A stretch of DNA of 63,448 bases, counting the filler, from Candidatus Woesearchaeota archaeon (GTDB taxonomy: Archaea; Nanobdellota; Nanobdellia; Woesearchaeales; CG1-02-33-12), in the NCBI GenBank assembly GCA_018399355.1. It is 10 parts of 10 records of this genome, joined end to end, with 100 filler letters (N's around TTAATTAATTAA, not from the genome) between each part and the next. Parts side by side here need not be neighbours in the genome. Positions count along the whole stretch, not along the records: positions 8,592 to 12,460 come from JAGYOA010000059.1; 9 more parts are not named here. One strand, written 5' to 3'. The position numbers and the translations under genes were made by a program. This document shows positions 1,967-63,448 of this stretch, one piece after another (the stretch's first letter is position 1; each line of letters begins with the position of its first letter). The notes below the pieces were generated by a model. The model saw only the letters and a list, made by a program, of their open reading frames with translations. It did not search any database and was not told the DNA's origin.

Positions 1967-2578
1967 ATGTCGAAATATAACACCAAAGAAAATGTAGGAA
2001 ACGATGAAGTTTTGGAAGAGAGTGAATACTCTCGAAAGACAGAGTTTTCTAAAGCCGTTTTAGCATCTTCTCAGGTAGAAAGATGTTTGGTTGCAAGAAG
2101 CAAGGATATGCGTCCAGGTTATACTACTTATGTTGTTGATAAGAATGGGGAATCACATCCCAAGATAATAACAGATACACGAAAAGAATTTGTTTCATCT
2201 GTTGAAGCATTAAAGAATTTACTTTCTCCTGAAATAAAAATGAAAAAATCAGAGTTAGTAACTAATTATCAAAATAAAAAGAAAGAACTTTTTAATAAAT
2301 TCGCATACCATGAAAGACTCGGAAAACGAATAAACTCTCAAACAGGGAATGTTGAATGGGTTTTTTCTAAAAGATTATATATGCCACAGAAAGGACATTT
2401 TATTTTAGCAGATTCAGAGTATCCTCAGAGTGTTAAAACCGTTAGGATAGAAAATGGTTGGGAGGATAATGTGGATGCTTATTGGGATGGTATGGTGGAG
2501 ATAGCAGACATGCTTTTTCAAGAATTAAATGAACTTATTCACCAGATTGAATATTTCAAAGGAGAAACTTCGTTCTAA
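1967..2578 (+). CDS. Hypothetical protein directly upstream of the ATPase
   Basis: 203 aa ORF with a paralog at 1405. Confidence 0.75.
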   Translation: MSKYNTKENVGNDEVLEESEYSRKTEFSKAVLASSQVERCLVARSKDMRPGYTTYVVDKNGESHPKIITDTRKEFVSSVEALKNLLSPEIKMKKSELVTNYQNKKKELFNKFAYHERLGKRINSQTGNVEWVFSKRLYMPQKGHFILADSEYPQSVKTVRIENGWEDNVDAYWDGMVEIADMLFQELNELIHQIEYFKGETSF

Positions 2579-2579
2579 A

Positions 2580-3506
2580 ATGAAAGTAAAAACAGCAGAA
2601 GATTTGAAAGAACATCCTGAAGCAGATTTGGTAGTAAACTATATTATTGATAGGTGGAAAAAAGGATTGTATTCATTAGTGTTAGTTGGTGGACTTCCTG
2701 GCACTGGGAAGTCCTCAACTTGCATAAGACTTGCAGAATTAACACAAATGAAATTAACAGGAGAAAATAATTTTAAAGTAGATAATGTTTTAGATAGTTT
2801 TTTAGATTTAATAAAGTTCGTTAAGAATGCTAAACCTGATAAAGTATGCACTGGAGTTGTAGAAGAAGTTAGTGTTTTATTTCCAGGAAGGAGAGCGATG
2901 TCTTCTGAAAATGTAGATGTTGCAAAGTTATTAGATACTGCACGAAAAAAGAAAGTAATTTTATTTGCTAATGCTCCAATCTATCCTTCAATTGATTCTC
3001 ACATGAGGGCGTTGGGTAATGTTTATATTCAAACCATTAAAATTTATAAGAAGGCAGAATTAGTATTTTCTAAATGTTATAAAATCCAAACCAATCCAGC
3101 AACAGGCAAAACTTATACTCATAATTTTAAACGAGGTGTTAAGGATGTTAATAGAATGTATACTCTAAAACCCTCAAAAGAAACATGGGAAGACTATGAG
3201 GGCAAGAAGGATAAGTTCTTAGATGAATTATATTCTAAAGCAGAAGCAAGAGCCATGAGAAAGCAGGAGAAGGATAATAAGCTATTGAAAAGCCAACAAC
3301 ACCCAGACATTAGCCCAAGAGATATGCAGATTTGTATTAGGAAAAGTATTGGAGAGAAAGAAGCTGATATTGCAAAGGATGTTAACCTCACAAGAGAGCG
3401 AGTTAATCAAATATATCATCAAATTAACAAAAATAACCCTGATTTTCTTAGAAATTCACCAAAAGTAAGTAAAAAACACAATCCAGAGCCCAATAAAGTA
3501 AATTAA
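2580..3506 (+). CDS. P-loop ATPase with C-terminal HTH; candidate viral packaging/morphogenesis ATPase
   Basis: Walker A GLPGTGKS, Walker B-like GVVEE, sigma70-region-4-like HTH LTRERVNQI; ATG 2580 follows the upstream stop. Confidence 0.7.
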   Translation: MKVKTAEDLKEHPEADLVVNYIIDRWKKGLYSLVLVGGLPGTGKSSTCIRLAELTQMKLTGENNFKVDNVLDSFLDLIKFVKNAKPDKVCTGVVEEVSVLFPGRRAMSSENVDVAKLLDTARKKKVILFANAPIYPSIDSHMRALGNVYIQTIKIYKKAELVFSKCYKIQTNPATGKTYTHNFKRGVKDVNRMYTLKPSKETWEDYEGKKDKFLDELYSKAEARAMRKQEKDNKLLKSQQHPDISPRDMQICIRKSIGEKEADIAKDVNLTRERVNQIYHQINKNNPDFLRNSPKVSKKHNPEPNKVN

Positions 3507-3555: not shown

Positions 3556-3744
3556 ATGAAAATGACTAAACTAAAAATTGCAGAAATGATTTTATTTGTT
3601 GTAGCAGTTATGGGATTAGTTAATAATCCTAATGATGGGACTCCTGAAAGTTTCTATGCTTATATTATTTCAGGAGTCTGTGGCGTTTTAGCATTAGGTA
3701 TTGAAATTTTTTTATGGATTAAAAGAAGGAATTATAAGAAATGA
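3556..3744 (+). CDS. Small 2-TM membrane protein
   Basis: 62 aa, two hydrophobic segments and a basic C-tail. Confidence 0.6.
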   Translation: MKMTKLKIAEMILFVVAVMGLVNNPNDGTPESFYAYIISGVCGVLALGIEIFLWIKRRNYKK

Positions 3745-4382
3745 AAGCAGATATTTATTTAAGAACTTCAACATTAGAACAACATCCAGAGAAACAAAAG
3801 CAGGAATGTTTGGAACTTCTTAAAAATAAAGGTTATGAATTAGGCAATATCTATTTAGAAAAACTATCAGGATATAAACAAATTCAAAGACCTAAATATT
3901 ATGAAGACCCATGCAATACTTCTACCTCCAGACAAAAAATAATATTCTACAAAGAAAAGAAAATAAAAATAACTTTTAGATTATTAAACAAACAAGAATA
4001 TTTTTTTAGTGGTAAGATAATAGAAACAGAAAAAATAAAAAAACCTATTGGTTTTATTCCCCCATATGAAGAATCTTATTTCATAATTCAATTAGATAAT
4101 GGAGATTTATTGTATGAAGAATTTGCTAATGTAGACAATCTATCAATACATCCTGCATCTTATCAACCGATTAAATATTTTAATAGAGAAAACATATCTG
4201 AAGAAATTAGACAGCAAGTATTTGAGAGAGCAAATAATCTATGCCAAATAAAAGGAGAAGGTTGCACAGGCAAGGCAGAAGAAGTTGACCACATAATGCC
4301 TATTAGTAAAGGAGGAAGTAATGACATTTCAAATTTACAAGCTTCTTGCATTAATTGTAATAGAAAAAAAAGCAACAAATAA
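3741..4382 (+). CDS. Serine-recombinase N-terminal fragment fused to an HNH endonuclease
   Basis: IYLRTST..Q...Q...E.LSG....RP (resolvase N-terminus); C-terminal DHIMPISKGGSNDISNLQASCINCN (HNH with Zn ligands). Confidence 0.7.
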   Translation: MKADIYLRTSTLEQHPEKQKQECLELLKNKGYELGNIYLEKLSGYKQIQRPKYYEDPCNTSTSRQKIIFYKEKKIKITFRLLNKQEYFFSGKIIETEKIKKPIGFIPPYEESYFIIQLDNGDLLYEEFANVDNLSIHPASYQPIKYFNRENISEEIRQQVFERANNLCQIKGEGCTGKAEEVDHIMPISKGGSNDISNLQASCINCNRKKSNK

Positions 4383-4645: not shown

Positions 4646-4684
4646 TTAACATTATATATTGCAAAATACAACATCTAATGTTAA
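4646..4684. promoter_or_regulatory. Inverted-repeat operator of the abiE-like operon, downstream of TATA box TTTATATA (4634-4641)
   Basis: Arms 4646-4663 and 4667-4684 match at 15/18 nt, with a 3-nt spacer. Confidence 0.65.
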
Positions 4685-4685
4685 A

Positions 4686-5186
4686 ATGAAAGGACTTTCA
4701 AAAAAGGAAATTGAACTGATCTCAGAGCTTGAATTCAGGAAAAAATACTATTTCAATAGAGAAAACATTGCACACCATTTCAAGAAAAGAAGCCAGCTAA
4801 ACCACACAATACACAAGCTTCTCCAGAAAAAAAGAATAATAAGCCTGAACAAAAACAAATATTACCTCATTCCAATAAAAGCAAAAAGAGGCAATTGGGC
4901 AGACAACCCGTTTATTATTGCAGACGAGATATTTGATGGAAAAGATTACTTTATTGGTGGATGGGCAGCTGCAAACTATTGGCAGATTACTGACCAGATA
5001 CCAATGAAAATAGAAGTCTACACAACCAAAAGACAGGGAAAGTGCAATATCCTTAACACATCCTTTATTTTCAGGAGGACAACCAAAAAAAGAATACATT
5101 CAGCTGTTGAAAAAAAAATAGCAAATCATGTTTTTAGGATACAATCAAAAAAAGACACAAAAAAATGGATAAAATCAAGAATCTGA
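4686..5186 (+). CDS. abiEi: Type IV TA antitoxin / transcriptional regulator (AbiEi-like)
   Basis: N-terminal wHTH, YFIGGWAAANYW..TDQIP motif; overlaps the downstream nucleotidyltransferase. Confidence 0.75.
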   Translation: MKGLSKKEIELISELEFRKKYYFNRENIAHHFKKRSQLNHTIHKLLQKKRIISLNKNKYYLIPIKAKRGNWADNPFIIADEIFDGKDYFIGGWAAANYWQITDQIPMKIEVYTTKRQGKCNILNTSFIFRRTTKKRIHSAVEKKIANHVFRIQSKKDTKKWIKSRI

Positions 5187-5950
5187 ATCAGGATGATTTT
5201 AATATAATTGCTGCAGAAACAGGCTTTAACAGAAATATACTGCTTAAAGATTATTACCTAACAATAATCCTCTATTTATTAAAAGAAACCAAAGGAATAT
5301 ACTTCAAGGGCGGAACAGCACTGCAGAAAATATTCTTGAATTATTCCAGACTAAGCGAAGACATTGATTTTACACTAACTACAAATCTAAAAGAAACAAG
5401 ACAGGAAATAATAAAAAAACTTAATGAATCAAAATTATTTGGCAAAATAAATCCAGACAAGGATGTTAAAGGCTTTGTTCGTTTGGTTGTTCCTTACACA
5501 GGATTTTCAAAAGAAAAAGGTTCAATCTCTATTGATTTAAATGAAAGGGCAAAATTATTAAGAAAACCAGAAAACAACAAAATAAAGCATTTCTATGAAA
5601 ATATCCCTGAATTCTCATTTAATACCTTGTCAAAAGAAGAAATGATTGCAGAAAAACTTGCAGCCGCAATTGGAAGGAACAAGCCTAGAGACCATTTTGA
5701 TATTTACAAAATAATTAAGCAAAAACTACCAATTAATTTAAAGCTTGTTAAAGAAAAATGCAAGCAGTCAAATATTGAATTCAACATAATCAGAATGTTT
5801 AGCAAAGCAAAAAAACTGAATAAAAGGTGGAATGAAGATATGATCCCTCTTTTATCAGAAGAAATCTCCTTTCAGGAAGTAATCCAAACATTAGCAAAAC
5901 ATTTCAATTTGAAACAAGAAAAAGAAAAACTAAAAAATTTATACATTTAG
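5165..5950 (+). CDS. abiEii: Type IV TA toxin, AbiEii/AbiGii nucleotidyltransferase
   Basis: KDY, FKGGTAL, RLSEDIDF, AEKLAA and RDHFD motifs. Confidence 0.9.
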   Translation: MDKIKNLNQDDFNIIAAETGFNRNILLKDYYLTIILYLLKETKGIYFKGGTALQKIFLNYSRLSEDIDFTLTTNLKETRQEIIKKLNESKLFGKINPDKDVKGFVRLVVPYTGFSKEKGSISIDLNERAKLLRKPENNKIKHFYENIPEFSFNTLSKEEMIAEKLAAAIGRNKPRDHFDIYKIIKQKLPINLKLVKEKCKQSNIEFNIIRMFSKAKKLNKRWNEDMIPLLSEEISFQEVIQTLAKHFNLKQEKEKLKNLYI

Positions 5951-8591: not shown

Positions 8592-8795
8592 GAAGTAGAT
8601 GATGTAGATGATCCTTCAAGTTTGTTTTCTGTTGTGACGGATATGATTAGTATGATTACTGCTCCATTTACATTACTGGCAACTGTGCTGGTAAATGTTT
8701 TAAAAATTCCTGAATTATTTGCAAATATTATTTTAGGACTTTTAGTGATTAGTATAATCTTAGCAATTTGGAGTTTGTTAAGAAAGGGGGATTAA
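8592..8795 (+). CDS. Membrane protein, 5'-truncated; homolog of 62026..62445
   Basis: Reads EVDDVDDPSSLFSVVTDMISMIT...IWSLLRKGD*. Confidence 0.85.
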   Translation, partial: EVDDVDDPSSLFSVVTDMISMITAPFTLLATVLVNVLKIPELFANIILGLLVISIILAIWSLLRKGD

Positions 8796-8826
8796 AAATG
8801 ATAGAATTGAATAGGAGGAAAATATA

Positions 8827-9135
8827 ATGGCATGGTCTTCACCAACAACGGTAAATGCAACGGCAGGTTTAGATAGTTTTTTACCCTATTTATCTGAAGT
8901 TAGCAATTTCTGGTTTGGAAGGATGTTAATGATTGCAATATTTGTAATATTTCTATTTGGATATGTAAGAACTAAAAATGATTGGGTTGGAGGTCTTGCA
9001 ATTGCATCTTATATTACCTTTGTATTAGGATTATTATTCTGGACAATAGGCCTTGTTACTGGAATAGATTTTGGAGTAATAGTAGGAATTACAGTTGTAT
9101 CCTCAGTTATATTGTTTTTGAAAGATAAAAATTAG
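8827..9135 (+). CDS. 3-TM membrane protein; homolog of 62500..62808
   Basis: Roughly three quarters identical to 62500..62808; GGAGG SD. Confidence 0.85.
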   Translation: MAWSSPTTVNATAGLDSFLPYLSEVSNFWFGRMLMIAIFVIFLFGYVRTKNDWVGGLAIASYITFVLGLLFWTIGLVTGIDFGVIVGITVVSSVILFLKDKN

Positions 9136-9244
9136 AGTGTATCCAATATATACATGCTTTTTTAAATATTAATTTCCTTATTTTTTCATACAAATGGCCT
9201 TAGGCCATATAAATATATAATTTAAAAGGAGGTTAAATATTAAA

Positions 9245-9550
9245 GTGAAATTCGGCAGACAAGATAAAGGAATTGCAGGATTAACCATTTTGTTATCTCT
9301 TGTAACAATGTTGTTTGTAATTGGACTTCTTGTGATGGTCTTTGCTCTTATGGGTGGAGAATTACAAGATGCAACTACAGACGCAACAGCAGAAGATGTT
9401 ATCAATGATACCACTACAAGTATTTCAGGTGTAACTGATTGGTTTGAAATCTTCCTTGTAATCGGTGCTATGGTTGTATTAGTTCTATTGGTGGTTATAA
9501 TTATATCAGCAATAAGAGGATCAGGACTAATTGCAAGTGGAAGTGCATAA
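9245..9550 (+). CDS. Putative major capsid protein (hydrophobic alpha-hairpin, spindle-virus-like)
   Basis: Basic leader ending in KG, two long hydrophobic helices joined by an acidic/Thr linker with an NDT sequon; AGGAGGT SD; GTG start conserved at 62944. Confidence 0.65.
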   Translation: MKFGRQDKGIAGLTILLSLVTMLFVIGLLVMVFALMGGELQDATTDATAEDVINDTTTSISGVTDWFEIFLVIGAMVVLVLLVVIIISAIRGSGLIASGSA

Positions 9551-9655
9551 AAAGGCCGAATTAATCTCTTTTGAACACAAAATGAGATTTAAAAATAAAA
9601 ACAACGGAGTTGCAGGATTAACCATTTTGTTATCTCTTGTAACAATGTTGTTTGT
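9273..9655 (+). repeat. 46-bp exact direct repeat (9273-9318 and 9610-9655) shared by the two capsid-like genes
   Basis: TTGCAGGATTAACCATTTTGTTATCTCTTGTAACAATGTTGTTTGT occurs twice. Confidence 0.95.
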
Positions 9656-10139
9656 TATAGGCCTTTTAGTGATGATTTTCTCTCTAATGGGAGGAGAATT
9701 ACGAAGTGCAACTTTTGATGACACAACTGTTACAGTTACCAATGAGACAAATATCTTTGTCAATACAACTGGAGATACATTATCTGGTGCATCTGCTTTA
9801 AATGCAGGTAGTTTTGTTATAACAGCAGTTTGGGATGAAGATAGTGGTGCTTATAATGTTACAGTACCAACAGCAAATGTAAGTGTTTCAAGTGCTGGAG
9901 TTGTTACAAACGGAACAGCAACAACATATGATGATGTAAGTTTGAGTTATACATATCATTATGATGCAGAAAACACAGCAACAGAAGTAATGAATGACAC
10001 AACTGCAGGAGTATCTGGTGTAACAGACTGGTTTGAGATTTTCTTGGTAATTGGTGCTATGGTCGTTTTGGTCTTATTAGTAGTAATAATAATAAGTGCT
10101 ATTAGGGGATCAGGACTAATTGCAGGAGGATCGGCATAA
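9582..10139 (+). CDS. Paralogous capsid-like protein with about 84 aa glycosylated insertion
   Basis: Both helices nearly identical to 9245..9550; six N-x-S/T sequons; ATG 9582 conserved at 63284. Confidence 0.65.
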   Translation: MRFKNKNNGVAGLTILLSLVTMLFVIGLLVMIFSLMGGELRSATFDDTTVTVTNETNIFVNTTGDTLSGASALNAGSFVITAVWDEDSGAYNVTVPTANVSVSSAGVVTNGTATTYDDVSLSYTYHYDAENTATEVMNDTTAGVSGVTDWFEIFLVIGAMVVLVLLVVIIISAIRGSGLIAGGSA

Positions 10140-10169
10140 AAGTATGCATAAAACCTTAATTTTTTCTTT

Positions 10170-10346: not shown

Positions 10347-10499
10347 ATGGCAAACAGAACAACAATTAATATTGATAAGGCAATTAGAGAAGAATTGAAT
10401 AGGTGTAAGAAATATAAAAGAGAAACTTATGATGAAATTCTGGAAACCTTAATAAAAGAGAGAAAAAGGAGGAGATCAAAGATAGGATTAAAAAATTAA
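10347..10499 (+). CDS. Small RHH-like DNA-binding protein, 50 aa (MANRTTINIDKAIREEL...RETYDEILETLI)
   Basis: Not in ORF track; beta-strand TTINI followed by two helices; TATA TTTATATA at 10318-10325. Confidence 0.7.
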   Translation: MANRTTINIDKAIREELNRCKKYKRETYDEILETLIKERKRRRSKIGLKN

Positions 10500-11537: not shown

Positions 11538-11750
11538 GTGAAAATGGTAAAATATGTTATAACTGCAACAAAGAATGGAAAAAGAATGGTTGGTGATACT
11601 TCTTTTAGGAAAAAGGAGAATGCAAAACAAGCAATTAAAAAGTTGATAAAAGATAAGAAATATAAATATCCAAAAATAGTAAAAGTTACAAAAGAAAGTA
11701 TTGATAGAATAAATAAAACCTATAATAAAAAGGGGGGGAGAAGAAAATGA
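11538..11750 (+). CDS. Small basic protein
   Basis: GGAGGTG SD points to ATG 11543 region; ATGA overlap with next ORF. Confidence 0.55.
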   Translation: MKMVKYVITATKNGKRMVGDTSFRKKENAKQAIKKLIKDKKYKYPKIVKVTKESIDRINKTYNKKGGRRK

Positions 11751-11980
11751 ATGAAATTGATAAACTGGAAGATGAATTAAAATATCTACAAAATAGAAGG
11801 AAAAAGAAAGAGAAAGAAAAATATCTTAAGAGAAAAATAGGTCAAGAAAAGTTTAATCAGAGTTTTTTAGGGAAGGTGGCCAATACTATTGGAAGAGTGT
11901 CAGAAAATTCTAAAAAGAGAAAAAAACCCACTAAAAACACAAAATCTGTGCAAGATCTTATAAGAGATTTGCCTCAATAA
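11747..11980 (+). CDS. Small basic coiled-coil protein
   Basis: 77 aa; composition similar to 46306..46620. Confidence 0.6.
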   Translation: MNEIDKLEDELKYLQNRRKKKEKEKYLKRKIGQEKFNQSFLGKVANTIGRVSENSKKRKKPTKNTKSVQDLIRDLPQ

Positions 11981-52135: not shown

Positions 52136-52287
52136 TGGGAAGAAAAAGAAGAATTCCAACAAAGGTTTTAAGTGCAAGAATTCCAAGAAGTGATTATGAA
52201 AAAATAAAACAATATGCTTTAAGATCTGGAAAATCTATTTCTGAAATATGGAGAGAATTAATTTTATCGGGGAGGTATAAAGTATGA
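52135..52287 (+). CDS. RHH (CopG/Arc-like) DNA-binding protein, 50 aa
   Basis: Not in ORF track; VLSARIP-RSDYEKIKQYA-GKSISEIWRELI; overlaps both neighbours. Confidence 0.75.
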   Translation: MGRKRRIPTKVLSARIPRSDYEKIKQYALRSGKSISEIWRELILSGRYKV

Positions 52288-52787
52288 ATAAAAAGGGAGA
52301 TTTTACAGGATCAATTTATATTATTGTTTCAATTGCCGCATTAGCAATAGTTCTTCTTATTGGAGGATATATTGCAAATGAAGTTTCTACAGAATTAAAA
52401 GATAAAATTTCAAGTGATGAAGCAGAAGTTAATAGAAGTTTTGATGCTACAATAAATGTTGCAAATAATACTCTTCCAGCTGTATGGTATGTTGTGTTTG
52501 CTGTCCTTTTACTTGGGTTATTTATTACTGCATGGTATATGCCGACACATCCAATCTTTGTTGCTCCTTTTATAATTTTATTAATTATTTCTGTAATGTT
52601 GGGGGTTGCATTTAGTAATGCTTATGAAGAATTATATGGCTTTTCAACATTTTCAGATATGGCGGATAATCAAACAAGTATAAATTTCATAATGGGAAAA
52701 CTCCCTCTTGTTGCTTTAGTAGTTGGAATTATTGCATTAGTTATTACATTTGCAAAACCTGGAGGAAATAATGCTCCAGTAGCATAG
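52284..52787 (+). CDS. 4-TM membrane protein with class III signal-like leader
   Basis: MNKKG plus hydrophobic helix; sequons NRS, NNT, NQT; GGAGGT SD. Confidence 0.8.
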   Translation: MNKKGDFTGSIYIIVSIAALAIVLLIGGYIANEVSTELKDKISSDEAEVNRSFDATINVANNTLPAVWYVVFAVLLLGLFITAWYMPTHPIFVAPFIILLIISVMLGVAFSNAYEELYGFSTFSDMADNQTSINFIMGKLPLVALVVGIIALVITFAKPGGNNAPVA

Positions 52788-60159: not shown

Positions 60160-62025
60160 GGAGAAACAAACATAACAGTTTATGCAAATGATACAGCAGG
60201 AAATGAAAACTATGAACATTTAAGTTTTGTTTATGATAGTGTGCCTCCGACAGTGGAAGATCAAACCGGACTGGAAGATTTAAATGCCAATCCCTTGCCA
60301 ATCAATTCCACATGGAGTTTTGATGCTTACGATACAAATATTGATAGTTGTTATTATAACACAAGTGATGATGCAACACAAGAAGTTGTTACATGTAATT
60401 CTTCAATAACAAACCTTGAATGGACTACAACCGGAAATAAAACAATTCAATATTGTGCAAATGATACAATTGGAAATGAAAATTGTAAGACAGAGAATAT
60501 TTATGTTTATGAAATAATAGAAACACAAGAAGATTATCCAGATCCAACAGCAGAGGGATTTAACACTGAATTTAATTTGACAGTAGAAAGAACAGTAGAG
60601 ATTCCAACAACAACTGCAACTCTTGTTTTGAACAATACAGAATATGAAGTGACTGGAATAGCAGTAGATAATTATTATTACTTTGAAGAGACAGTTAATA
60701 TTCCAGAGGGATGGGGAAATTCTACTGGAAATTTAATTGATTGGTATTGGAATTATGAGATTAATGGAATTGGAACTTATAATACAACAACCACAAATTT
60801 AACTGTTTATGAAATAGCGATTGATGATTGTTCAAGTTATGGAGATGTTATCCTTAATTTCTCTCTATTGGATGAGGAAACTTCAACACCGGTTAATGAA
60901 ACTCTTGGATCAAATGTAGAAATTGATATGACTTTAACTTCAACAGATAATTCAACATCTCTCTTAACATATCACAACACATGGGAAGATGATAATAATC
61001 CACAAGTTTGTATTCCTACTGGAATTTTAAGTGGAGGATTAGAGTATGAAATGGATTTTACTGTTGGATTTGATAGTACAGATAGAGTTTGGGAATTTTA
61101 TTATTTAGATGGAGGCCTTTTAGATTCAGATAAAGTTTATGATAGTTACACTTCAAAAGATATTAACTTAATGGATCTATTAACAGTGGATAGTACTTCA
61201 TTTTTATTCAATTATTTTGATGAAGATGGTCAAGCAGTGCCAGATGCAATGATCCATGTTTTTAGAAAATATATTGGAGATGGAGAATTTAAAGAAGTGG
61301 AAAGAGCACAATCAGATTCAAATGGAGATACAATTGTTCATTTAGTAGAAGAGGATGTAATTTATTACTTTGTAATAACAAGTAATGGAGATACATTATA
61401 TACAACAAGTCAATTAACTGCTTTATGTCAATCAACTCCATGTTCAATTCAAATTGAGGCATCTGGGGAAATAGCAGAATTTCCGACAGATTATGATCTT
61501 GTAGATAATGGAGCAATTTCTTTAGAACAAAACAGAAGTACAAGAAGTGTCATTCTAACTTATTTATTAAATGAAAGTCAAGAAGTGAATTTATCTATTT
61601 ACAAGTATGAATCAGATGGATCTTATTCTCTTATTGAATCAGATGCAAAAAATTCAATTGCAGGAGTTACAGATACAATTACAATTTCAATTCCAATGAG
61701 TGCAGGAAATGTTAGTTTTTTCTCAAATATATTTATAGATGGAACTTATATAAGATCGGATTGGATTGATTTTAATGAAAGATCCTCTGATTTTTTTGGA
61801 TCAACTTTATCTATTTTCTTAGCAGTTTTAATAATTATTTCTTTAGGATTAATTGCAATTACAGAGGGAGCAGGAACAATAGTGTTTGTAATCTTAGGAG
61901 TTTTCTTAGCCGGAGCATTAGGATTAATGAATCCATCTTTATCAACCGGAGTAAATGTAATAATTTATTTGGCAGTTACTGGAGGATTAATCTTATGGAA
62001 AGTCACACAGAGGAGGGGAGCATAA
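60160..62025 (+). CDS. Large acidic glycoprotein with C-terminal TM anchors (spike/tail-like), 5'-truncated
   Basis: Frame open to the edge; YANDTAGN / CANDTIGN Ig-like motifs; many N-x-S/T sequons; three C-terminal TMs. Confidence 0.8.
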   Translation, partial: GETNITVYANDTAGNENYEHLSFVYDSVPPTVEDQTGLEDLNANPLPINSTWSFDAYDTNIDSCYYNTSDDATQEVVTCNSSITNLEWTTTGNKTIQYCANDTIGNENCKTENIYVYEIIETQEDYPDPTAEGFNTEFNLTVERTVEIPTTTATLVLNNTEYEVTGIAVDNYYYFEETVNIPEGWGNSTGNLIDWYWNYEINGIGTYNTTTTNLTVYEIAIDDCSSYGDVILNFSLLDEETSTPVNETLGSNVEIDMTLTSTDNSTSLLTYHNTWEDDNNPQVCIPTGILSGGLEYEMDFTVGFDSTDRVWEFYYLDGGLLDSDKVYDSYTSKDINLMDLLTVDSTSFLFNYFDEDGQAVPDAMIHVFRKYIGDGEFKEVERAQSDSNGDTIVHLVEEDVIYYFVITSNGDTLYTTSQLTALCQSTPCSIQIEASGEIAEFPTDYDLVDNGAISLEQNRSTRSVILTYLLNESQEVNLSIYKYESDGSYSLIESDAKNSIAGVTDTITISIPMSAGNVSFFSNIFIDGTYIRSDWIDFNERSSDFFGSTLSIFLAVLIIISLGLIAITEGAGTIVFVILGVFLAGALGLMNPSLSTGVNVIIYLAVTGGLILWKVTQRRGA

Positions 62026-62445
62026 ATGGGTCAAGATCAATTTAAAACAACATTAACTGGCCTTGTATTGTTTGTATTATTCTCAAGTTTAGTTTTAACT
62101 CTGGCAATTGATTTTGGAGCAGATCATGGAAAAGAGGCCTCTGAAATTGGGGAGGGATCTTTTAATCTAACCCTGTTTGAAGAGAGTGCAGAAAGTGTTG
62201 AAGGAGATGCACAATCATATAGATCAAGATTTGAAAGTGGAGAAGTTGATGATGTGGATGATCCATCCGGATTATTTTCTGTTGTAACAGATATGATTAG
62301 TATGATTACAACTCCATTTAGTTTATTATCACAAGTGTTGCAAAATGTATTAAAAATTCCTGCATTATTTATTAATGTAATTTTAGGCCTTTTGTCAATA
62401 GGATTGATATTAGCGATCTGGAGCGTATTAAGAAAAGGGGATTGA
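62026..62445 (+). CDS. Membrane protein (structural module)
   Basis: N- and C-terminal TMs; homolog at 8592. Confidence 0.85.
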   Translation: MGQDQFKTTLTGLVLFVLFSSLVLTLAIDFGADHGKEASEIGEGSFNLTLFEESAESVEGDAQSYRSRFESGEVDDVDDPSGLFSVVTDMISMITTPFSLLSQVLQNVLKIPALFINVILGLLSIGLILAIWSVLRKGD

Positions 62446-62499
62446 TCAAGATGAAAAAGATAAATAAAAATAAAACTGAAAGAGGAGGAATGAATTAAC

Positions 62500-62808
62500 A
62501 TGGCTTGGACTTCTCCCACGACAGTTAATACAACAGCAGGAATAAATGAATTTCTCCCTTACTTATCAGAAGTGAGTAATTTTTGGTTTGGAAGAATGTT
62601 AATGGTCACTGTATTTATGATTTTCTTGTTTGGTTATTTGAGGGCAAAGGATGATTTTATAGGAGGTTTTGCAATTGCAAGTTACATAACATTTGTGATG
62701 GGATTATTATTCTGGACAATTGGATTAGTAACTGGAATAGATTTTGGAATAATAATTGGATTAACGATTATATCTTCTGCGATTTTATTTACAAGGAATG
62801 ATAAATAA
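62500..62808 (+). CDS. 3-TM membrane protein (structural module)
   Basis: Homolog at 8827. Confidence 0.85.
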   Translation: MAWTSPTTVNTTAGINEFLPYLSEVSNFWFGRMLMVTVFMIFLFGYLRAKDDFIGGFAIASYITFVMGLLFWTIGLVTGIDFGIIIGLTIISSAILFTRNDK

Positions 62809-62943
62809 TATCTAAAAGATATAAAGTATCTTTTGTATCCAGTGTATCCGAATACTTATTAAGGCAAACACACTCTTTTTTTTATCTTAATTTATTGGCC
62901 ATAGGTCAAAAGGAAAAGAGTTATAAATGGAGGTTAAAAAAAA

Positions 62944-63252
62944 GTGAAATTCGGACAGCAAGATAGAGGAGTTGCAGGATTAACAATTTTATTGTCTCTT
63001 GTAACTATGCTTTTTGTGATCGGACTTCTTGTTATGATCTTTGCTCTAATGGGTGGAGAATTACAAGATTCAACTACTGATAATACTGCAATTGATGTTA
63101 TTAATGACACAACTTCAAGTATTAGTTCAGTAACCGATTGGTTTAACATCTTTATTGTCATCGCCGCAATGGTAGTTCTAATTCTTTTAACTGTAATTAT
63201 AATTACAGCAATAAGAGGATCTGGACTTATGAGTGGTGGAGGTAGTGCGTAA
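62944..63252 (+). CDS. Putative major capsid protein (hydrophobic hairpin)
   Basis: Ortholog of 9245..9550. Confidence 0.65.
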   Translation: MKFGQQDRGVAGLTILLSLVTMLFVIGLLVMIFALMGGELQDSTTDNTAIDVINDTTSSISSVTDWFNIFIVIAAMVVLILLTVIIITAIRGSGLMSGGGSA

Positions 63253-63349
63253 GGCCGAATTAATATCTCTTTTGATTAACAAAATGAGATTTAAAAATAA
63301 TAACAACGGAGTTGCAGGATTAACAATTTTATTGTCTCTTGTAACTATG
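62968..63349 (+). repeat. 42-bp exact direct repeat (62968-63009 and 63308-63349)
   Basis: GGAGTTGCAGGATTAACAATTTTATTGTCTCTTGTAACTATG occurs twice. Confidence 0.95.
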
Positions 63350-63448
63350 TTGTTTGTTATCGGTCTTTTAGTAATGATTTTCTCTCTAATGGGAGGATCA
63401 TTAAGCGATGCCTCTTATGACAGTACAACTGCAACTGTTACAAACGAA
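63284..63448 (+). CDS. Paralogous capsid-like protein, runs off the window
   Basis: Not in ORF track; MRFKNNNNGVAGLTILLSLVTMLF...TVTNE, ortholog of 9582..10139. Confidence 0.8.
   Translation, partial: MRFKNNNNGVAGLTILLSLVTMLFVIGLLVMIFSLMGGSLSDASYDSTTATVTNE

Follow-up and report, generated by a model that had tools for sequence, protein, structure and literature searches.

The gene module at positions 8592-10139 of the stretch of DNA analysed here, a window of 63,448 nucleotides composed of ten contigs from one 918-kb bin (G000; Candidatus Woesearchaeota archaeon, GCA_018399355.1) with N spacers between them, is in our judgement quite probably the virion-structural block of unnamed, non-tailed archaeal viruses with circular double-stranded DNA (dsDNA) genomes of 21-31 kb, most likely spindle-shaped (lemon-shaped), whose capsid proteins would mature by the pilin route. 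These small circular viruses form a widespread family. What appears to be new, as far as the sequences indicate, is a virus-encoded prepilin peptidase together with capsid candidates that carry class III (pilin-type) leaders; spindle-shaped viruses of DPANN archaea have already been described, so that the type of virus itself is not new.

The module runs on the + strand from a 139-amino-acid (aa) protein with two transmembrane (TM) segments, F3, through a 102-aa three-TM protein, F2, to a 101-aa hairpin protein, A, and a 185-aa hairpin protein, B. It sits at the start of bin contig C55 (8592-12460), which truncates F3 to its 3' end (8592-8795); F2 follows at 8827-9135, A, the candidate major capsid protein (MCP), at 9245-9550, and B, a paralogue of A and candidate minor, decorated capsid subunit, at 9582-10139, 9582 being its most plausible start. 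A second copy (62026-63448, likewise +) lies at the end of contig C62 (60160-63448) and comprises F3 (62026-62445), F2 (62500-62808), A (62944-63252) and the 5' part of B (63284-63448), truncated by the contig end. It stands downstream of the C-terminal 621 aa of a large glycoprotein, F4 (60160-62025, +), a candidate tip adhesin; the fragment holds 19 sequons and three C-terminal TM segments and is 40-52% identical to F4 of the genomes G001, G003 and G004. The claim of an earlier note on this DNA that the ordered module recurs in diverged form holds for these two contigs: DNA identity is 73.8% over 1219 aligned columns, and protein identity is 81% for F3 (8592-8795 against 62242-62445), 74% for F2, 81% for A and 85% for B (N-terminal 55 aa), so that the copies represent two separate elements and not a single misassembled locus. 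Family-wide, F3 and F2 occur on 59 and 79 loci, respectively, and the order F3-F2-hairpin is kept in all 50 loci that hold all three.

Hairpin A possesses two hydrophobic helices and one loop sequon, which 96 of the 102 aligned sequences have at N54. Its AlphaFold2 model (pLDDT 81.7; helices 8-42, 47-64 and 67-92) is a kinked helical hairpin, a predicted architecture that agrees with the small, hydrophobic, alpha-helical hairpin pattern of MCPs in spindle-shaped viruses. Hairpin B (pLDDT 90.4; helices 10-43 and 132-176, strands 46-129) is an A-type hairpin with a glycosylated beta insert of about 85 aa between the same two helices, and has a median of seven sequons. The two genes share two direct repeats, one for each helix (9266-9376 and 9603-9713, 85.6% over 111 bases; 9386-9552 and 9975-10141, 76% over 167 bases; both +), and the final 28-residue helix of A and B is identical. 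Identity between the C-terminal helices of A and B amounts to 97% within a genome and 89% between genomes, and was higher within the genome in 36 of 37 distinct loci, a count inflated by kinship among the loci. This likeness fits two subunits in one lattice and is comparable to the repeat common to VP1 and VP3 of SSV1. Of 501 candidates, 340 proved homologous to A, with 76-100% identity in the best 120, and its profile matches 289 clusters at 50% identity, 211 of them at E<=1e-10. The copy number of hairpin genes in the family ranges from one to four: L122:1793-3224 (G319:C106) holds four tandem paralogues and G798 three. A third type of hairpin pair is found in the bin (G000:C80:194-864), with an 83-aa hairpin (leader KKG/Q, the slash at the predicted cut) and a leaderless 140-aa B-like protein, the latter aligning to gp19 of the Haloferax virus LSV-48N (pairwise E=5e-5).

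Relatives of the module were recovered from six of 70 candidate stretches in IMG/VR, from at least 313 of 598 stretches in metagenomes, of which 80 were used, and from one of 63 stretches in GTDB species genomes, this last being a contig of 22 kb whose record bears the title Thermoplasmatales. Four IMG/VR genomes with direct terminal repeats are complete and circular (25,839, 31,253, 20,766 and 27,011 bp; range 20,766-31,253 bp); two further IMG/VR records are more distant, one of them with direct terminal repeats (26,089 bp), and in one contig a unit of 21,453 bp is repeated, i.e. assembled twice. According to clustering of open reading frames (ORFs), the structural block has the order giant basic protein, F9, F8, F11, F6, F4, F3, F2, A and B; a variable region with F7 and then F14, F16, F24, F17 and F23 come after it, and F59, the ATPase F36 and the tyrosine recombinase F21 lie on the opposite strand. 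Genes for HNH-type homing endonucleases are inserted among the structural genes at varying positions (L088, L090, L091; G001, G002). The 109 ORFs of at least 100 aa in the four complete genomes match Pfam families of integrase, methylase, HNH, helix-turn-helix (HTH), LamG, DUF2341 and A24 peptidase; at E<=1e-4 none matches a conjugation, pilus-motor, HK97, terminase or polymerase family. Thirty core proteins searched against PHROGs likewise yielded no HK97 capsid, portal or terminase. For the window itself their absence had been claimed before, and it is borne out: none was convincing among 31 proteins searched against Pfam and PHROGs, where a single PHROG 'virion structural protein' appeared at E=0.043.

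Both A and B begin with a short leader that ends in Gly directly before the first helix, a feature that the earlier note missed, as it did the A24 peptidase. In hairpin A (leader 9245-9271, +) the predicted cut follows Gly9, which is invariant in 102 sequences. By rule, 132 of 137 hairpin ORFs have a class III site, as do 22 of 24 ORFs of F6, whereas none of 79 F2 and 21 F8 ORFs does. Among the 102 sequences of A it occurs in 98, with Asp at -3 in 92 of these. The bin's host genome is rich in surface proteins with class III leaders and in KK[GA]/Q leaders; of its 40 class III-like ORFs by the same rule, 23 have Lys at -3 and none has Asp or Glu. Both hairpin B leaders of the bin (9582-9608 and 63284-63310) have NNG and not [KR]G at their end, which takes the site further away from the host consensus.

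The peptidase candidate is F7, a 140-aa protein with five to six TM segments, in which 15 of 16 members match Peptidase_A24 (PF01478). Both catalytic Asp motifs are kept, D20 and G72-x-A-D75-x-K77 being invariant or nearly so over 16 sequences. F7 is present in all four complete genomes (in three through Pfam, in G002 through family similarity), in G405:C22 and on contig C47 of the bin (667-1089). The bin also has a PibD-like gene of its own, on contig C9. Five distant whole or near-whole elements, three of which may be incomplete, have host-like leaders (KKG/Q, NKG/Q, KKG/M) and no A24 gene, and element G629 has neither; fifteen partial loci, partly chosen for holding the peptidase, were excluded from this count of co-occurrence. 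The viral A24 enzyme probably gives the peptidase-bearing clade a private maturation route, because its acidic -3 leaders differ from the bin's own pilin-type proteins. The 138-aa multi-TM protein ORF138 of PAV1 (L099:10909-11325) shows A24-like Asp motifs by eye (F7 profile E=0.32) and is possibly a second viral prepilin peptidase.

A comparable site is found in fuselloviruses, where [KR][GA] directly precedes the hydrophobic segment of VP1 in 13 of 13 sequences, with Glu at +1 in 12. Class III peptidases read their substrates through the residues before the cut and are tolerant at +1. According to the available sections of Iverson et al. (PMC5748691), pre-VP1 of SSV1 is cut before Glu66 by a protease that is still unknown, with no protease gene in SSV1 itself; the five residues ahead of the cut are essential, whereas the mutants E66Q and E66A stay infectious. 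The host prepilin peptidase PibD is thus a candidate for the VP1 protease. A pibD mutant is described, in the accessible part of PMC7217056, as adsorbing SSV9 and yet giving neither virus nor genome copies, which was ascribed to pili; the lack of genome copies points to a block at entry, so this result alone cannot show a role in VP1 maturation. In the text available of PMC6563490, prepilin peptidases are mentioned solely in conjugative elements. A broader proposal, which we advance tentatively and rate slightly on the doubtful side, is that spindle-shaped viruses in general mature their capsids via the pilin route, that the present family is the first to encode a prepilin peptidase, one paired with a shifted leader that would not suit the host enzyme well, that its relatives and fuselloviruses borrow host PibD (which would then be the VP1 protease of SSV1), and that the hosts are Woesearchaeota-like symbionts with several variants per population. 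We found no paper joining class III leaders, A24 peptidases and spindle capsids in a search that covered the subscription literature thinly, and the idea may be in print.

The link to spindle-shaped viruses is clearest in the ATPase. The window contains a B251/His1-ORF16-type ATPase with a C-terminal HTH (2529-3506, +, contig C53; PHROG 5484, E=2e-4), which matches ORF16 of His1 in a pairwise blastp comparison (E=1e-6). It belongs to a more distant element; the ATPase that goes with the hairpin clade is encoded outside the window, on contig C28. Searched against 50,697 phage records at E<=1, the ATPase of the distant member G228:C7 gave seven matches, all to spindle-shaped viruses (LSV-48N at E=3e-16 with 81% covered; SSV4, an SSV6-type virus and SSV7 at E 0.07-0.8), whereas that of the close clade alone gave two chance matches only. 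A widened family profile picked exactly four proteins from a small set of five virus proteomes, to which the E-values refer: His1 ORF16 (2e-12), TPV1 (3e-12), LSV-48N gp23 (2.5e-9) and SSV1 B251 (1.4e-6). In a tree of 17 rows, in which TPV1, His1 and the window ATPase have long branches, the close clade is a single group with good support; of the distant members, two join LSV-48N (97/93) and two join TPV1 (94/93, unstarred). No relatives on viral contigs were found for the window ATPase, the primase-like gene of the window or the LSV-48N ATPase.

F4, 1,200-1,370 aa long in the complete genomes and with a LamG domain in the G001 copy, provides a second link: its profile matches gp12 of LSV-48N and the lectin (LamG/ConA) proteins of TPV1 and PAV1 (E 4e-8 and 2e-7), partly through the common LamG domain. 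From the layout of LSV-48N we predicted 13 distinct gene pairs, which were compared with its 37 proteins under shuffle controls. Four pairs scored above all shuffles: B with gp19 (top-ranked at 13.3 bits, reached by none of 200 window shuffles and none of 991 host ORFs), F4 with gp12 (top-ranked at 18.4 bits, none of 40 shuffles), the ATPase, and the recombinase, whose profile ranks gp25 first. The family has the B251/His1-ORF16-type ATPase, the large membrane-anchored glycoprotein adhesin and the small dsDNA genome of the broad group of spindle-shaped viruses. The suggestion of a spindle-type family that is uncharacterised in the libraries searched and exists in several variants is upheld by these data; between hairpin A and VP1 of SSV1 or the His1 MCP, no significant match was found by sequence, profile or fold.

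Several observations weigh against our interpretation. The margin between hairpin B and gp19 is thin (13.3 bits against 13.0 for the best shuffle); seven of the 13 pairs with LSV-48N do not rise above shuffles (A, F2, F3, F6 against two genes, F14 and F59), A scoring against gp20 as shuffles do, and two more, F8 and F9, are marginal (3 of 200 shuffles). Hairpin A, with about 92 residues in its mature form and three helical segments, is longer than SSV1 VP1 or the His1 MCP (73). A fold search with its model gave nothing at E<=0.001 in BFVD or PDB, the best matches (Z 8.7) being generic coiled coils, and His1_capsid was found in none of five and VP1_VP3 in none of four virus genomes. Alignment of A with fusellovirus and His1 capsids by hhalign remained below 1% in probability, in a comparison that is too insensitive, since the positive control, His1 against fuselloviruses, reached only 2.5%. 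F7 is mostly below the Pfam cut-off (it is above it in G003), and its profile matches no solved structure. Finally, with only two clades involved, the correlation between peptidase and leader amounts to one evolutionary event and not ten.

Other searches with the hairpins were likewise negative or yielded leads at most. Neither Pfam nor PHROGs held a family name for the hairpins of the window or for 32 diverse hairpins, only hydrophobic noise; two hairpin profiles had no significant match among PDB sequences; and by tblastn the phage records yielded no useful match to A, B, a distant B or the close-clade ATPase. For hairpin B the best fold match (Z 8.9) was generic; spindle capsids are absent from the listings for A and B alike, which does not exclude them. 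For B a single match in BFVD is the nameless 187-aa protein A0A5Q2W4Q0 (E=3e-6, full length, TM-score 0.32, root-mean-square deviation 11.7). In the ESM Atlas the named clusters nearest to hairpin A are VP1_VP3 (0.85) and His1_capsid (0.82), which, being below 0.9, are leads only.

Among known viruses LSV-48N offers the closest parallel in layout. It is described in the available text of PMC12714723 as a Haloferax virus with particles that are lemon-shaped in transmission electron microscopy and a circular genome of 24 kb, and is placed in the proposed family Almyrocitroviridae in that of PMC13612827. Like the present family it has a circular genome of about 25 kb, tandem hairpins, one of which (gp19, matching B) bears a glycosylated beta insert, a block with a large glycoprotein anchored by three TM segments, a small membrane protein and a three-TM protein, a giant low-complexity ORF, and, in order on the strand opposite to the structural block, a gene of about 190 aa, the ATPase and the tyrosine recombinase. 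In contrast, it is the GC-rich virus of a halophile, its ATPase is only 27% identical to that of the nearest member, most gene pairs are without detectable homology, gp20 has a long pro-region instead of a short class III leader, and no A24 gene was found in it. That only four of the 13 gene pairs are clearly above shuffles suggests that the family is separate from Almyrocitroviridae.

Similarities to other spindle-shaped viruses are scattered. SSV1 shares tandem paralogous hairpins with direct repeats (VP1/VP3), a B251-type ATPase beside the integrase, circular dsDNA and a VP1 precursor cut after [KR][GA]. Fuselloviridae differ in their genome size (15-24 kb), in a VP3 that is leaderless, whereas both A and B carry leaders, and in their capsid family: VP1_VP3 (PF06281) has no match in the four complete genomes even at E<=10. 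His1 (Halspiviridae) has an ATPase of the same ORF16 type with a C-terminal HTH and an MCP followed by an insert-bearing hairpin (ORF23) and three-TM genes; ORF23 is the best match of the hairpin B profile in a set of four viruses, at a non-significant 6.9 bits. Its genome, however, is linear with terminal inverted repeats and a protein-primed PolB, whereas the family has circular genomes with direct terminal repeats, no PolB family in the 109 ORFs and no His1_capsid match. The family is probably separate from Fuselloviridae and Halspiviridae, or represents several families. TPV1 and PAV1 share the LamG/ConA adhesins, TPV1 also the ATPase and, by eye, a run of basic residues that closes with Gly ahead of the first helix of gp15; they differ in having a single hairpin and different replication genes. 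The nanohaloarchaeal spindle-shaped viruses DNSV-1 and DNSV-2, compared by description only, resemble the family in their 21-22 kb genomes, two paralogous hairpin MCPs, AAA+ ATPase, tyrosine recombinase, large adhesin, lack of a recognisable replication gene and DPANN host, and differ in their hypersaline origin and Nanohaloarchaeota hosts, as assigned by CRISPR; the main text, as far as available, never mentions a peptidase (10.1101/2025.02.15.638363). By analogy, and with the same restriction to the text available of each source, the family most likely functions as spindle-shaped viruses such as LSV-48N, the fuselloviruses, wyrdviruses and DNSV do (PMC13612827, 10.1101/2021.07.29.453957, 10.1101/2025.02.15.638363). 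Archaeal type IV pilins and their peptidases PibD, FlaK and EppA provide the other half of the comparison, with class III leaders of the type [KR][GA] before a hydrophobic helix and A24 enzymes with two catalytic Asp motifs. EppA is a dedicated peptidase for a subset of substrates, which the viral A24 enzyme recalls. Unlike pilins, the substrates of the family have two membrane helices instead of one, no pilus ATPase (PilB/FlaI) or platform protein (PilC/TadC) occurs among the 109 ORFs, and F7 is only 140 aa long, compared with open frames of about 290-316 aa for the host copies. A 2024 survey of DPANN viruses, reportedly by Wu, Liu and Ni, may include members of the family.

The following course of events is proposed for these viruses. 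A and B would be inserted in the host membrane with their short leader in the cytoplasm and cleaved after the invariant Gly by the virus's own A24 aspartic peptidase; the loop of A and the beta insert of B would face outwards and be N-glycosylated by the host; both proteins would co-assemble into a single helical lattice; the B251-type ATPase would power extrusion of the genome or budding without lysis; and the large glycoprotein may build an attachment tip with F3 and F2. Host, particle shape and leader cleavage are here deduced from sequence. A virus of the same ancestry but of another shape (filamentous, rod-like, or pleomorphic and enveloped), with pilin-like hairpins extruded round the DNA as in inoviruses, is in our view rather improbable. 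The greater length of hairpin A relative to known spindle capsids and the lack of shown homology to them are compatible with such a particle, as is a weak match of the ATPase to Zot/pI (PF05707, E 0.002-0.009), an extrusion ATPase class that is reported for wyrdviruses as well in the available text of 10.1101/2021.07.29.453957; yet all named relatives of the ATPase are spindle-shaped viruses, B and F4 match genes of LSV-48N, and the proteins of the complete genomes match no pleolipovirus family.

Pili, too, have class III leaders and an A24 peptidase as their hallmarks, and the module might instead sit on a plasmid or integrative element of non-viral nature, one that makes pilins with two helices (CedA1/TedC/VirB2-like), matures them with a prepilin peptidase of its own and assembles them into a pilus or a tube for DNA transfer. 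In favour of this, each of the four complete genomes has a tyrosine recombinase, the profile of A gives a weak match to the N-terminus of an archaellin (5z1l, E=0.16), and an Aeropyrum conjugative pilin appears at rank 10 in Foldseek (E=5). Conjugative pilins with VirB4/VirB6 neighbours, named in the earlier note as the outcome that would speak against a virus, did not emerge: VirB4, VirD4, VirB6, relaxase, T2SSE and T2SSF families are all absent from the 109 ORFs at E<=1e-4, the sole conserved ATPase is of the B251 type, and size and layout of the genomes are as in spindle viruses, which makes such an element improbable. That the module is an operon for surface proteins in the chromosome of the binned archaeon, duplicated or derived from a mixture of strains, could be imagined given the 40 class III-leader ORFs of the host and the common bin of the contigs; we consider it very improbable. 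Relatives are complete circles, and none of the loci examined shows a member linked to host genes. A module fixed in chromosomes is not what we found either: among 401 genomes of the bin's order, five including the bin have members, each on element-only contigs, the other four being distant and on contigs of 5.5-28 kb without a terminal repeat. The element contigs also deviate most in tetranucleotide content among the 2-10 kb contigs of the bin.

The host of these presumed spindle-shaped viruses would be an AT-rich archaeon; whether it is Woesearchaeota-like we regard as evenly balanced. The earlier note's link to the binned archaeon is not established, as the bin of a Thermoplasmatales-titled genome also contains close relatives, among them the nearest (85% in hairpin A). 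Co-binning was found in four of 400 other genomes of the order, in one of 400 genomes drawn phylum-wide (G279, found in both sets) and, within the class of G405, in two of the 196 other genomes, where one case is a short match with a stop; rates so alike across groups indicate no host specificity. A Woesearchaeota-like host is favoured because the distant members binned with this order carry host-like leaders. A crude repeat scan revealed no CRISPR-like array in the bin, and no tRNA or other attachment-site match connects the bin, with only 10 tRNAs assembled, to the elements. The tRNA-Ala(TGC) gene of G004 (L095:5699-5771) is unlike the tRNAs of the genomes searched, with a weak match in two of 301 genomes of the phylum and none of 197 in the comparison class.

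The bin contains 19 element-like contigs, on which F6, F9 and F14 have four copies each, so that at least four related elements must be present; further ones outside the window are G000:C28, C44, C47, C68, C69, C72, C79 and C81-C84. Downstream of the first module, C55 encodes a 50-aa ribbon-helix-helix (RHH)-like regulator, F22 (10347-10499, +; 75.6% identical to a gene of G001, with a weak Pfam match to DUF7557, E=1.7e-4), and the small basic protein F10 (11747-11980, +; family hidden Markov model (HMM) E=1.5e-16). More distant elements are represented by C59, with the four-TM protein F6 (52284-52787, +; family HMM E=3e-54; class III leader), and by C53, with F14-like and F9-like genes (130-822 and 822-1415, +) that are 55% identical to those of G228:C7. 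On C53, two tandem paralogous ORFs (1405-2578), the first seemingly shortened, lie upstream of the ATPase and have a relative in G228:C7. At 3741-4382 the N-terminal fragment of a resolvase is fused to HNH, and a similar resolvase start stands beside the ATPase on C81; the host contig C54 holds, by eye, an AbiEi/AbiEii-like pair (4659-5950).

An ATPase, RHH genes, giant basic ORFs and an LVIVD protein (Pfam E=6e-27) on other contigs were correctly noted before, whereas the archaeo-eukaryotic primase reported with them shows motifs by eye and no Pfam match. The assignment of the primase and LVIVD contigs to the family is not supported, for neither C61 (56569-60059) nor C58 (45597-49191) has a blastp match to any family locus. 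C61 encodes a 304-aa primase-like ORF, two RHH genes and a possible OB-fold gene, and could be the replication block of one element or an unrelated element; distant members have primase-like or MCM-like genes by eye. C58, with its LVIVD-repeat protein, a 76-aa hairpin with a QG/Q-type start, a basic 104-aa ORF and a basic 859-aa ORF, is element-like in layout.

The family is large, with its 289 clusters at 50% identity, carries no label in metagenomes and contaminates bins of small-genome archaea. Spindle-shaped viruses are specific to archaea, and their assembly is poorly understood. A family that encodes capsid candidates with class III leaders together with an A24 peptidase points to how such coats may mature, and the SSV9 result obtained with the pibD mutant, which the accessible part of PMC7217056 ties to pili alone, would be worth rereading.

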